64,000 bases of DNA from Escherichia coli (GTDB lineage: Bacteria; Pseudomonadota; Gammaproteobacteria; Enterobacterales; Enterobacteriaceae), in assembly GCF_036507355.1 (NCBI RefSeq), contig NZ_AP027877.1, one strand, 5' to 3'. Position 1 is the first letter of the stretch. Each line of letters starts with the position of its first letter. Below the pieces are notes generated by a model that saw only the letters and a list, made by a program, of their open reading frames with translations, was not told the DNA's origin and ran no database searches. The position numbers and the translations under genes are program-made. Positions 28,756 through 45,365 of this stretch are shown here, piece after piece.

Positions 28756-30192
28756 ATGGCGCAGTCGAAACTCTATCCAGTTGTGATGGCAGGTGGCTCC
28801 GGTAGCCGCTTATGGCCGCTTTCCCGCGTACTTTACCCCAAGCAGTTTTTATGCCTGAAAGGCGATCTCACCATGCTGCAAACCACCATCTGTCGCCTGA
28901 ACGGCGTGGAGTGCGAAAGCCCGGTGGTGATTTGCAATGAGCAGCACCGCTTTATTGTCGCGGAACAGCTGCGTCAACTGAACAAACTCACCGAGAACAT
29001 TATTCTCGAACCGGCAGGGCGTAACACTGCACCTGCCATTGCACTGGCGGCGCTGGCGGCAAAACGTCATAGCCCGGAGAGCGACCTGTTAATGCTGGTG
29101 CTGGCGGCGGATCATGTGATTGCCGATGAAGACGCGTTCCGTGCCGCCGTGCGTAATGCCATGCCGTATGCCGAAGCGGGCAAGCTGGTGACCTTCGGCA
29201 TTGTGCCGGATCTACCTGAAACCGGATATGGCTATATTCGTCGCGGTGAAGTGTCGGCGGGTGAGCAGGATACGGTGGCCTTTGAAGTGGCGCAGTTTGT
29301 CGAAAAACCGAATCTGGAAACCGCCCAGGCCTATGTGGCAAGCGGCGAATATTACTGGAACAGCGGTATGTTCCTGTTCCGCGCCGGACGCTATCTCGAA
29401 GAACTGAAAAAATATCGCCCGGATATCCTCGATGCCTGTGAAAAAGCGATGAGCGCCGTCGATCCGGATCTCGATTTTATTCGCGTGGATGAAGAAGCGT
29501 TTCTCGCCTGCCCGGAAGAGTCGGTGGATTACGCGGTCATGGAACGTACGGCAGATGCCGTTGTGGTGCCGATGGATGCGGGCTGGAGCGATGTCGGTTC
29601 CTGGTCTTCATTATGGGAGATCAGCGCCCACACCGCCGAGGGCAACGTTTGCCACGGCGATGTGATTAATCACAAAACTGAAAACAGCTATGTGTACGCC
29701 GAATCTGGCCTGGTCACCACCGTCGGGGTGAAAGATCTGGTGGTGGTGCAGACCAAAGATGCGGTGCTGATTGCCGACCGCAATGCGGTGCAGGATGTGA
29801 AAAAAGTGGTCGAGCAGATCAAAGCCGATGGTCGCCATGAGCATCGGGTACATCGCGAAGTCTATCGCCCGTGGGGCAAATATGACTCTATCGACGCGGG
29901 CGACCGCTACCAGGTGAAACGCATCACCGTGAAACCGGGCGAAGGCTTGTCGGTACAGATGCACCATCACCGCGCGGAACACTGGGTAGTGGTCGCGGGA
30001 ACGGCAAAAGTCACTATTGACGGTGATATCAAACTGCTTGGTGAAAACGAGTCCATTTATATTCCGCTGGGGGCGACGCACTGCCTGGAAAACCCGGGGA
30101 AAATTCCGCTCGATTTAATTGAAGTGCGCTCCGGCTCTTATCTCGAAGAGGATGATGTGGTGCGCTTCGCGGATCGCTACGGACGGGTGTAA
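28756..30192 (+). CDS. cpsB: Mannose-1-phosphate guanylyltransferase (colanic acid copy)
   Basis: 478 aa; [16 protein letters not shown] nucleotidyltransferase motif; C-terminal cupin domain. Confidence 0.95.
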
Positions 30193-30293
30193 ACGTCGCA
30201 TCAGGCGCTGTTTGTCGGATGCGGCGTGAACGCCTTATCCGACCTACGGTTCGGTTTTGTAGGCCTGATAAGACGCGGCAGCGTCGCATCAGG
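30193..30293. repeat. REP/BIME cluster between cpsB and cpsG
   Basis: cgtcgcatcaggc...cggatgcggcgtgaacgccttatccgacctac...gtaggcctgataagacgcggcagcgtcgcatcaggc. Confidence 0.85.
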
Positions 30294-30384
30294 CAATGAA
30301 TGCGAAACCGCGGTGTAAATAACGACAAAAATAAAATTGGCCGCTTCGGTCAGGGCCAACTATTGCCTGAAAAAGGGTAACGAT

Positions 30385-31755
30385 ATGAAAAAATTAACCT
30401 GCTTTAAAGCCTATGATATTCGCGGGAAATTAGGCGAAGAACTGAATGAAGATATTGCCTGGCGCATTGGTCGCGCCTATGGCGAATTTCTCAAACCGAA
30501 AACCATTGTGTTAGGCGGTGATGTCCGCCTCACCAGCGAAACCTTAAAACTGGCGCTAGCGAAAGGTTTACAGGATGCGGGCGTCGATGTGCTGGATATT
30601 GGCATGTCCGGCACCGAAGAGATCTATTTCGCCACGTTCCATCTCGGCGTGGATGGCGGCATCGAAGTTACCGCCAGCCATAACCCGATGGATTACAACG
30701 GCATGAAGCTGGTGCGCGAAGGGGCTCGCCCGATCAGCGGTGATACCGGACTGCGCGACGTCCAGCGCCTGGCAGAAGCCAACGACTTCCCTCCCGTTGA
30801 TGAAACCAAACGCGGTCGCTATCAGAAAATCAACCTGCGTGACGCTTACGTTGATCACCTGTTCGGTTATATCAATGTCAAAAACCTCACGCCGCTCAAG
30901 CTGGTGATTAACTCCGGGAATGGCGCAGCGGGTCCGGTGGTGGACGCCATCGAAGCCCGCTTTAAAGCCCTCGGCGCACCAGTGGAATTCATCAAAGTGC
31001 ACAACACGCCGGACGGCAATTTCCCCAACGGTATTCCTAACCCGCTACTGCCAGAATGCCGCGACGACACCCGCAATGCGGTCATTAAACACGGCGCGGA
31101 TATGGGCATTGCTTTTGATGGCGATTTTGACCGCTGTTTCCTGTTTGACGAAAAAGGGCAGTTTATCGAGGGCTACTACATTGTCGGCCTGTTGGCAGAA
31201 ACATTCCTCGAAAAAAATCCCGGCGCGAAGATCATCCACGATCCACGTCTCTCCTGGAACACCGTTGATGTGGTGACGGCCGCAGGCGGCACCCCGGTAA
31301 TGTCGAAAACCGGACACGCCTTTATTAAAGAACGTATGCGCAAGGAAGACGCCATCTACGGTGGCGAAATGAGCGCCCACCATTACTTCCGTGATTTTGC
31401 TTACTGCGACAGCGGCATGATCCCGTGGCTGCTGGTCGCCGAACTTGTGTGCCTGAAAGAGAAAACGCTGGGCGAACTGGTGCGCGACCGGATGGCAGCA
31501 TTTCCGGCAAGCGGTGAGATCAACAGCAAACTGGCGCACCCCGTTGAGGCGATTAATCGCGTCGAACAGCACTTTAGCCGCGAGGCGCTGGCGGTGGATC
31601 GCACCGATGGCATCAGCATGACCTTTGCCGACTGGCGCTTTAACCTGCGCTCCTCCAACACCGAACCGGTGGTGCGGTTGAATGTGGAATCGCGCGGTGA
31701 TGTGCCGCTGATGGAAGCGCGAACGCGAACTCTGCTGACGTTGCTGAACGAGTAA
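30385..31755 (+). CDS. cpsG: Phosphomannomutase (colanic acid copy)
   Basis: Start at [15 protein letters not shown] (456 aa); TASHNP active-site motif. Confidence 0.95.
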
Positions 31756-42522: not shown

Positions 42523-42523
42523 A

Positions 42524-43939
42524 ATGATTATCCCAATTATTATGGCCGGTGGTTCTGGTACTCGCTTATGGCCTCTTTCGCGTTCGTTATACCCGAAACA
42601 ATTTTTATCATTGATTAATGAAAATAGTTTGCTCCAGGAAACGTTGAAGAGACTTGATGGATTAAATTGTTTGCCTCCTGTCATTGTTAGCAATAATGAG
42701 CATAGATTTATTGTTGCTGAACAATTGCGCCAGTTCGGTGTGGATGACTTCCAGATTATTCTAGAACCTGTAGGTAGAAATACTGCGCCCGCCGTTGCGC
42801 TGGCTGCTCTAAAGTCTCTAGAACTCCATGGCGATCATCATATGCTGGTTCTTGCTGCTGACCATGCTATTCAGGATATTGAAGCCTTCCATGCAGCTGT
42901 TTTAGCTGCAGAACAAGAGTCCGTTGACAATAAGTTAGTGACTTTTGGCATCGTCCCGACCAAACCTGAAACTGGGTATGGCTATATTAAAAAGGGCGAA
43001 CAAGTTAAAAACTCTGTATTTAAAGTAAATTCTTTCGTCGAAAAACCTGATTTAGAAACGGCTAAAAATTATCTCGAACAAAAATGCTATTTGTGGAATA
43101 GTGGTATGTTCATGTTCAAGGCGAGCGTATATTTAGATGAATTGAAAAAATTTCGCCCTGATATTTTAGCAGCGTGTAAAGAGTCGCTTTCCAGTGCTAG
43201 TACTGATCTAGATTTTATCAGATTAAATTCTGATGTCTTTGCAGAATGTCCCGATGAGTCAATTGATTATGCGGTAATGGAAAAAACTCAGGATTGTGTA
43301 GTTATTCCACTTGATGCTGACTGGAGTGACATCGGTTCATGGACATCACTTTGGGAAATATCAGAGAAAGATGAACATGAAAACGTATCGCATGGCGATG
43401 TAATTAACTATAACAGCAGGAACAACTACATTTACTCTGAAGGTTCACTGATCAGCACTGTAGGAGTTAATAACCTTATTATAGTTCAAACTAAAGATGC
43501 GCTCCTGGTAGCACAGCAAGACAACGTACAAGACATAAAGAAGATTGTCGAAATTCTTAAAAAGCAAAAACGTAGCGAACATGTATCCCATCGCGAAGTC
43601 TATCGTCCTTGGGGACGTTATGATTCTGTAGAACGTGGCGACCGTTATCAGGTAAAACGTATTACCGTTAAGCCTGGTGAATGTCTCTCAACACAAATGC
43701 ATCATCATCGAGCTGAGCATTGGGTGGTTGTCGCTGGTACTGCAAAGGTGACTTGCGGCGAACGCACTTTTTTCGTCACTGAAAATGAGTCAACTTTCAT
43801 ACCAATTGGCACAGTTCATACCTTGGAAAATCCAGGAAAGATACCATTAGAAGTAATTGAGATTCAGTCGGGTGTATATCTAGGTGATGATGATATTGTG
43901 CGCCTAAGTGATAAATATGGTCGTGTTGAGGATAAATAA
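42524..43939 (+). CDS. manC: Mannose-1-phosphate guanylyltransferase (O-antigen copy)
   Basis: 471 aa; [16 protein letters not shown]; collinear with cpsB but AT-rich. Confidence 0.9.
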
Positions 43940-43943
43940 TTAT

Positions 43944-45365
43944 ATGAATATTACCAATGATGTAATTAAAAATAGCGGAATTGCATTTGGTACAAGTGGT
44001 GCTCGTGGATTAGTGAAAGATTTTACACCCAACGTGTGTGCTGCATTCACTTATGCTTTTATCGATGTAATGATGAAGGATTTTTCTTTTAAAGAGGTTG
44101 CGCTCGCAATAGATAATCGGCCAAGCAGCTATGCTATGGCACAAGCTTGCGCAGCAGCATTGTTGGAATGTAGTATTAAACCTATTTACTACGGTGTAAT
44201 TCCAACTCCAGCTTTGGCAAATCAAGCGATTGCCGATGGGATTCCTGCAATAATGGTTACTGGAAGTCATATTCCATTTGATAGAAATGGTTTGAAATTC
44301 TATCGTCCAGACGGGGAAATTTCAAAAGAAAATGAGAACAGCATTATACATGCTGAAAAAGAGTATCCTGATGTAACTGTATTGCCAGAATTACAATGTT
44401 CAAAGCGTGCCGCTGATACTTATATCGAGAGAAACACTTCAATTTTTTCAAATATATTTAAAGGTAAACGTATCGGGATTTATGAACATTCAAGTGCGGG
44501 ACGGGATCTTTATTCAGAAATATTCAGTAAACTTGGTGCTGAAGTTGTAAGTATTGGTAGAAGTGATAAGTTTGTGCCTATTGATACTGAAGCAGTATCA
44601 AAAGAAGATGAAGAAAAAGCTTTACACTGGTCATCTGAGTATGACCTCGATATGATTTTTTCTACCGATGGTGATGGCGATCGTCCTTTGGTTGCTGACG
44701 AAAATGGCGTTTGGTTACGGGGTGATATATTAGGACTATTTTGCTCAAAGGCAATGAATATTGAAGCGGTAGCTGTACCTGTAAGTTGTAATACGGTTAT
44801 TCAGACTTGCGGGTGGTTTAATCATGTAACGCTGACTAAAATTGGTTCACCATACGTCATTTCAGCGTTTGATTCTCTGAATAATAGTTTTGATAGGGTT
44901 GCAGGGTTTGAGGCTAACGGTGGGTATCTTTTAGGTAGCGATGTAAATTATAACAGCGGTATGATTAAAGCGCTTCCAACAAGAGATGCTGTTTTGCCTG
45001 CTTTAATGGTACTGGCACTGGCTATAAAAAATAATGTGACTATTTCAAAACTCTTGGCGGAGTTGCCACCACGATTTACCTACTCAAATAGAGTTCAAAA
45101 TTTTGCAACAAGCAAAAGCAAAAGCATTATCGCGTCAGCTCAAGAAAATCCTCAAGAATTTATCGAAAGAATAGGCTTTGTCGATCTTCATGTACAATCG
45201 GTGGATACAATTGACGGGTTAAGATTGACACTAAGTGATGGTTCAATAATCCATTTGCGACCGTCAGGCAACGCACCTGAATTGCGATGCTATGCAGAAG
45301 CAGATAACATAATAAAAGCTGAAAAATTAGTGTTAGAAGTTTTGCATAAAGTTACTCTTTTGTAA
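43944..45365 (+). CDS. manB: Phosphomannomutase (O-antigen copy)
   Basis: Start at [22 protein letters not shown] (473 aa); AT-rich. Confidence 0.85.

Follow-up and report, generated by a model that had tools for sequence, protein, structure and literature searches.

Why should one chromosomal region encode the same two enzymatic steps twice, and are the two gene sets diverged copies of each other or separate acquisitions? The question is raised by a stretch of 64,000 nucleotides from Escherichia coli (contig NZ_AP027877.1; hereafter, the window), in which the colanic acid gene pair cpsB/cpsG and the O-antigen gene pair manC/manB are both assigned to the synthesis of GDP-mannose. In either pair, a phosphomannomutase (CpsG or ManB) would convert mannose-6-phosphate to mannose-1-phosphate, from which a guanylyltransferase (CpsB or ManC) would then produce GDP-mannose. 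Very probably, the window represents the wca–galF–O-antigen–gnd region and carries two separately acquired gene sets for these two steps. The placement of a colanic acid and an O-antigen GDP-mannose pair side by side is in itself a well-documented, already known arrangement; in particular, manB and manC are present in 56 E. coli O-antigen clusters, always beside the colanic acid pair (PMC4732683).

The four genes had been delineated in a preliminary description of the window, and the open reading frames (ORFs) match that description exactly; their assignments come from NCBIfam, Pfam and RefSeq (Table 1). The start codons of the two mutase genes differ from those of the mechanically called ORFs: cpsG starts at the ATG at position 30385, the mechanical TTG start at 30337 being too long by 16 codons, and manB starts at the ATG at 43944 rather than at the GTG at 43908. 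The manB gene begins 4 nt past the manC stop codon, and the O-antigen operon is tightly packed.

The guanylyltransferases CpsB and ManC

The two guanylyltransferases share 60% protein sequence identity over 473 residues (E = 0). Both are members of TIGR01479 (GMP_PMI; cutoff 372.95), with scores of 809.5 bits for CpsB and 754.6 bits for ManC, and both contain the same three Pfam domains, NTP_transferase, ManC_GMP_beta-helix and MannoseP_isomer (the C-terminal cupin), as well as the N-terminal GGxGxRLWPLSR loop, which the preliminary description quoted as MAGGSG(S/T)RLWPLSR. The CpsB equivalog model NF012004 (cutoff 859) nevertheless separates the two proteins because CpsB (1111 bits) is a member and ManC (707 bits) is not. 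At the DNA level, a codon-aware alignment of cpsB and manC yields 59.7% identity, with 34% at third positions; the best 120-nt window does not exceed 72% identity, and identical bases extend over 17 nt in a row at most (at 29851 and 43589). Among the 99 four-fold degenerate sites at which the two genes encode the same amino acid, 24% are identical, compared to 20% expected from base composition, and this proximity to the expectation indicates that the synonymous sites of the two genes are saturated. By these measures, CpsB and ManC are clear homologues and ancient paralogues.

The phosphomannomutases CpsG and ManB

The collinear motifs that the preliminary description ascribed to both pairs are borne out for CpsB and ManC but not for CpsG and ManB, for which BLASTP aligns 378 residues with 24% identity (E 4e-8) and global alignment gives 26% identity for the proteins and 38.5% for the DNA, which is not alignable. 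All four Pfam domains PGM_PMM_I to PGM_PMM_IV are found in both proteins, which places them in the alpha-D-phosphohexomutase superfamily, and all four catalytic loops are intact in each, namely TASHNP, DGDFDR, GGEMSAH and RSSNTEP in CpsG and TGSHIP, DGDGDR, GFEANGG and RPSGNAP in ManB.

Within the superfamily, the closest structures of the two proteins are different. Those of CpsG are the PGM/PMM of Xanthomonas citri (5bmn, E 6e-171) and the PMM/PGM AlgC of Pseudomonas aeruginosa (1k35, 1e-55). The nearest structure to ManB is the phosphomannomutase of Brucella melitensis (4hjh; residues 10-463, E 1e-95), with mutases of the GlmM type and from archaea next in rank, and ManB produced no match to the Xanthomonas or Pseudomonas PMM/PGM structures at E <= 1e-5. 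In agreement with this division, ManB scores 22 bits with the CpsG subfamily model NF011943 (cutoff 801) and is not a member. In its 473-aa form, ManB matches with 100% identity a cluster whose 608 sequences carry the name phosphomannomutase, and its relatives bearing the same name come from Salmonella enterica (75%) and from Citrobacter, Aeromonas, Photobacterium and Vibrio (62-65%). Judging from these comparisons, CpsG and ManB belong to different phosphohexomutase branches and are distant superfamily relatives rather than diverged copies. The manB gene of this O-antigen family is not an orthologue of cpsG and is unfit to serve as its "second copy" in arguments on recombination or copy number.

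Base composition and origin of the two pairs

The difference in nucleotide composition noticed in the preliminary description is fully apparent from the guanine-plus-cytosine (GC) fractions of the genes (0.559 for cpsB and 0.552 for cpsG vs 0.401 for manC and 0.380 for manB), and even more so from those at third codon positions (GC3; 0.63 and 0.65 vs 0.32 and 0.26, respectively). The neighboring wzy, wzx and glycosyltransferase genes, with GC3 of 0.26-0.28, resemble manC and manB in this respect.

The two pairs share the C-then-B gene order, the orientation and the chromosomal neighborhood, as would be expected had they arisen through a recent duplication within E. coli with subsequent drift in composition. 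We consider the probability of such a scenario to be negligible. Synonymous sites are saturated, with identity at four-fold sites near the compositional expectation, and this is not the pattern of a recent tandem or segmental duplication, which would show near-identical DNA with unsaturated synonymous sites; ManB and CpsG occupy separate branches of the superfamily; the closest relatives of ManB are found outside Escherichia; and the low GC3 of manC and manB is that of the adjoining O-antigen genes. The preliminary description took near-identical nucleotide sequences to be the mark of a recent duplication, and the pairwise comparison it proposed clearly yielded nothing of the kind. Collectively, the DNA identities of 59.7% and 38.5%, the saturation of four-fold sites, the assignment of ManB to the other branch and the provenance of its relatives support the independent origins of the two pairs suggested there.

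Under this interpretation, cpsB and cpsG would be part of the species-wide colanic acid operon (the cpsB–cpsG segment of the window is 96-98% identical to that of most E. coli genomes) and would supply GDP-mannose to Gmd and Fcl for GDP-fucose synthesis, and manC and manB would belong to a laterally acquired, AT-rich operon of the O17/O44/O73/O77/O106 type.

The O-antigen type and the predicted activity of ManB

In a collection of 5,426 complete genomes of E. coli, 92 match the O-antigen cluster of the window over 8,451 bp with 99.8% identity. The cluster belongs to the O17/O44/O73/O77/O106 family, with DNA identity above 99% that includes wzy and wzx. The backbone of this O-antigen family is Man-Man-Man-GlcNAc, and the serogroups differ only by glucose side branches which are conferred by prophage gtr genes located elsewhere (PMC7685785), so that the window cannot tell which of the five serogroups is involved. 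With three mannoses and one GlcNAc in each repeat unit, GDP-mannose is needed whenever the O antigen is made. The same backbone is common to Salmonella O:6,14 (PMC4732683), which fits the 75% identity of ManB to the Salmonella protein.

ManB is a predicted phosphomannomutase, an activity suggested by the adjacency of manC, the all-mannose backbone, the names of its relatives in the source databases and the similarity to 4hjh. Might the gene at 43944-45365 instead encode some other phosphohexomutase, specific for glucosamine or glucose, such that the O-antigen cluster would draw on cpsG for mannose-1-phosphate and the enzymes would not be truly duplicated? The best NCBIfam models for ManB are indeed GlmM-type, all scoring below their cutoffs, and the score with the CpsG model is no better than stated above; its serine loop is TGSHIP in place of TASHNP; and the name of the 4hjh entry is the one given by the depositor. 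Nevertheless, the start of manB lies immediately behind manC in an operon whose product requires only GDP-mannose and UDP-GlcNAc, and its relatives in Salmonella, Aeromonas, Photobacterium and Vibrio carry the name phosphomannomutase throughout. In a search for distant matches, 251 E. coli genomes matched at least 80% of the combined manC and manB query, and the two non-O17 matches that were sampled are annotated with both genes. Furthermore, the metal-, sugar- and phosphate-binding loops of ManB are intact, and E. coli has glmM and pgm elsewhere. Taken together, these observations make a different substrate specificity improbable, and we retain phosphomannomutase as the predicted function of ManB.

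Recombination between the two pairs

The preliminary description also proposed that the two pairs act as dispersed repeats for homologous recombination. A RecA-dependent exchange between them would create hybrid genes or remove about 13.8 kb, that is, the 3' part of cpsB or cpsG, wcaJ, wzxC, wcaKLM, galF and the two glycosyltransferase genes. The predicted deletion is geometrically right because the pairs are in direct orientation, at a spacing of 13,768 bp for the C genes and 13,559 bp for the B genes. Second cpsG-like copies recognizable at the DNA level are widespread in the collection: in 4,688 genomes, megablast located 5,724 such places, an excess of about 1,000 over the number of genomes. 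Moreover, the same kind of event has been published for two other O types. [quoted passage not shown] All this notwithstanding, we regard such recombination as very improbable for the gene pairs of the window.

Recombination by E. coli RecA reportedly needs, going back to Shen and Huang in 1986, roughly 20-30 nt of perfect identity, and recombination frequency falls steeply with divergence. Neither such runs nor high overall identity are present here, and a role of the two pairs as substrates for RecA-type recombination is not supported. The DNA is so diverged that the two pairs would be effectively insulated from mutual homologous recombination.

The survey of complete genomes for deletions and hybrid genes, which the preliminary description had suggested, leads in the same direction. 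The O17-type manC–manB copies number 93; each extends over 80% or more of the query, and 92 have an identity of at least 99%, with no conversion patches. Coverage is 100% in all 18 copies among the matches listed, and in the other genomes the 80% threshold is compatible with a crossover within the initial fifth of manC. By megablast, the O17-type copies are full or nearly full and no hybrids were detected, the other matches (60 hits) all corresponding to one 53-bp stretch. The 17.8-kb interval from wcaI to manB is intact in at least 91 of the 93 O17-type genomes, in a search that took up to 40 matching pieces per record, a number reached in 4,281 records. Finally, a synthetic junction query consisting of gmd–wcaI fused to wzy–wzx, which produces a single match only if the two halves lie within 3.75 kb of each other, identified the predicted deletion junction in none of the 5,426 genomes. 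With a longest identical run of 17 nt, no such junction in the collection and no hybrid in the sampled O17-type copies, the idea of a deletion reaching from wcaJ through the first O-antigen genes does not hold for this locus, and O17-family strains offer no practical substrate for a deletion of the O14 kind.

Two apparent candidates were examined and discarded. One of the 53-bp matches, in H84, is no conversion tract in the colanic acid cpsB; the gene named "cpsB" in RefSeq is flanked there by glycosyltransferase genes, is 83% identical to cpsB and is in fact the manC of another cluster. The weakest cpsG match, in strain 673 (NZ_CP141196), was considered as a possible hybrid and turned out to be an unrelated lesion truncating cpsG and wcaJ. 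In this clinical isolate (positions 9001-11811), cpsG is cut after approximately 680 nt, wcaJ is without its 5' part, and about 1.7 kb of other sequence lies between them. Separately, 738 of the 5,426 genomes give no megablast match to cpsG, the colanic acid pair being missing or replaced.

Regulatory elements of the two operons

Each of the two operons has a JUMPstart/ops element at its head. The element upstream of wza contains GGCGGTAGCGT, and the one in front of the O-antigen operon is located within the AT-rich gap of 393 nt between galF and the first glycosyltransferase gene. Elements of this type bring RfaH to long operons for polysaccharides, and it is the Rcs system that drives the colanic acid operon. 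The two operons would be transcribed separately, each beginning with its own JUMPstart/ops element and presumably in an RfaH-dependent manner. A consensus scan for promoters and terminators between 38800 and 48400 gave counts not above those in shuffled sequences.

The spacer between cpsB and cpsG, 192 nt in length, contains repetitive extragenic palindromic (REP)-type repeats, including a 13-nt repeat at 30194-30206 and 30282-30294, and the algC RNA motif. REP elements at this spot have been reported previously (PMC3158064). Repeats of the REP/bacterial interspersed mosaic element type, related to the REP sequence at 30193-30300 in the cpsB–cpsG spacer, are also seen in the spacer between wzxC and wcaK (34729-34899), in the form of two 75-nt direct repeats with 93% identity, one of which corresponds to the Rfam family naRNA4 (34770-34840, minus strand, 79.7 bits).

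The algC motif before cpsG is matched over its full length (1-52), and an Rfam search around manC and manB found no match even at E <= 1. The motif is also absent before a cpsG-like manB in the O-antigen/capsule cluster of another strain (L003), and is present before a second colanic acid cpsG, in strain 673 (L004). The term does not occur in the main text of Weinberg et al. 2017, and we treat the leader of cpsG as a curated candidate element that is uncharacterised as far as could be found. That cpsG is preceded by a curated RNA leader and the O-antigen copy is not appears to be a useful point.

Since each operon has its own JUMPstart and the algC leader is found at cpsG only, it is plausible that the two supplies of GDP-mannose are controlled separately. 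To this extent, the separate regulation envisaged in the preliminary description is retained; differential expression of the two pairs is a further step that we infer. One could go on to imagine that the signals acting on the mutase step differ between the pairs, with the algC leader sensing a metabolite or protein, and that a mutase gene of the 4hjh type protects the O17 family from conversions and deletions driven by cpsG. We deem this combined proposal rather unlikely.

Three observations weigh against the interpretation of the window as harboring two separately acquired gene sets for the same steps. ManB falls below every curated NCBIfam cutoff, its best, GlmM-type models reaching 170 bits where the cutoff is 439; two of the 93 O17-type genomes show less than 80% coverage of the 17.8-kb interval, although the junction query rules out the predicted junction all the same; and the JUMPstart elements of the two operons are of the same kind, so that control may be partly shared. 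Beyond correct annotation, the doubling described here matters little; a second set of GDP-mannose genes beside the colanic acid cluster is textbook knowledge for strains of E. coli and Salmonella whose O antigens contain mannose. The mildly informative points are only two, the position of the O17-family manB in the other mutase branch and the RNA leader specific to cpsG.

Layout of the locus

The order of genes in the window is asmA, an ORF for an IS110-family transposase, yegH, wza–wcaM (16031-38862), galF and the six-gene O-antigen cluster (40324-48156), followed on the 3' side by gnd, ugd, wzzB and the his operon. Coordinates of the individual features are given in Table 1.

Table 1. Genes and sequence elements of the GDP-mannose region in the 64,000-nucleotide window
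Feature	Position	Strand	Assignment	Basis
JUMPstart/ops element	15814-15852	+	upstream of wza, head of colanic acid operon	Rfam RF01707, 57.3 bits (gathering 35)
gmd, fcl, gmm	24962-27533	+	GDP-mannose consumers: GDP-fucose synthesis, GDP-mannose hydrolase	RefSeq annotation of G4/9; ORFs
cpsB	28756-30192	+	colanic acid mannose-1-phosphate guanylyltransferase, type II PMI/GMP family	NF012004, 1111 bits (cutoff 859)
REP-type repeats, cpsB–cpsG spacer	30193-30330			median of 10 matching places for the spacer in each E. coli genome
algC RNA motif	30331-30380	+	candidate cis-regulatory leader, ends 4 nt before the cpsG ATG	RF02929, 76.6 bits (gathering 33.8)
cpsG	30385-31755	+	colanic acid phosphomannomutase, PMM/PGM branch	NF011943, 1054 bits (cutoff 801)
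galF	39037-39930	+	left boundary of O-antigen locus	TIGR01105, 679.8 bits (cutoff 659); annotation
JUMPstart/ops element	40185-40223	+	head of O-antigen operon	Rfam RF01707, 59.2 bits (gathering 35)
Two GT4-type glycosyltransferase genes	40324-41327, 41320-42522	+		Pfam Glycos_transf_1, Glyco_trans_1_4; RefSeq
manC, O-antigen cluster	42524-43939	+		TIGR01479, 754.6 bits (cutoff 373)
manB, O-antigen cluster	43944-45365	+		four PGM_PMM Pfam domains; RefSeq name phosphomannomutase
wzy	45548-46879	+		RefSeq "O17/O44/O73/O77/O106 family O-antigen polymerase"
wzx	46921-48156	+		RefSeq "O17/O44/O73/O77/O106 family" flippase
gnd	48309-49715	+	right boundary of O-antigen locus	NF006765, 774.7 bits

The closest genome in the collection is that of strain G4/9 (NZ_CP060073), which is colinear with the window and 99.6% identical to it over positions 774-43540. 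In G4/9, which is one of the 93 O17-type genomes, an IS3-family element is located within manC (at 43549-44732), and the O-antigen genes of that strain (40840-49193) are annotated as frameshifted, whereas the copies in the window are all intact. The alignment with G4/9 requires 27-35 gap openings, and many of the frameshifts in this AT-rich stretch may be assembly errors.

The transposase of the IS110 family is encoded by an intact 341-aa ORF (12498-13523, minus strand) in the asmA–yegH interval just upstream of the colanic acid operon, and is found at the same coordinates in G4/9. Within the colanic acid operon, the GC fraction is low (0.43-0.45) at 22500-24500, over wcaD, wcaE and wcaF, compared to 0.54-0.57 in the rest of the operon, and drops over wcaM (0.48) toward galF. 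Downstream of the O-antigen locus, the His operon leader (59431-59554, minus strand, 131 bits) and the enterobacterial small RNA STnc240 (61851-61925, plus strand, 68 bits) were recognized, both of which are expected in this chromosomal region.

Comparison with known systems

The colanic acid part of the window agrees with the wca/cps cluster of K-12 (Stevenson et al. 1996, as cited in PMC7685785) in gene content, gene order and the JUMPstart before wza, and shows no relevant difference from it; the ORF of the IS110-family transposase upstream, between asmA and yegH, is a feature of the window. The O-antigen part corresponds to the O17/O44/O73/O77/O106 cluster (Gp9; Wang et al. 2007, as cited in PMC7685785 and PMC4732683), to which the galF–gnd DNA is 99.8% identical, with the same order of two glycosyltransferase genes, manC, manB, wzy and wzx and without substantive difference. 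The phosphomannomutase of Brucella, so named by the depositor of 4hjh, shares the TGSHIP, DGD.DR and GFEANGG motifs with ManB, although the organism and the genomic context differ. The O14 and O157 cases (Samuel et al. 2004; Jensen and Reeves 2004) involve the same layout, with a colanic acid and an O-antigen pair in direct orientation. However, the manB genes in those serogroups are cpsG-like (above 95% identity in O157; PMC3158064), in contrast to the manB of the window, which has 38.5% DNA identity to cpsG and belongs to the other mutase branch, and to its manC, which is 60% identical to cpsB.

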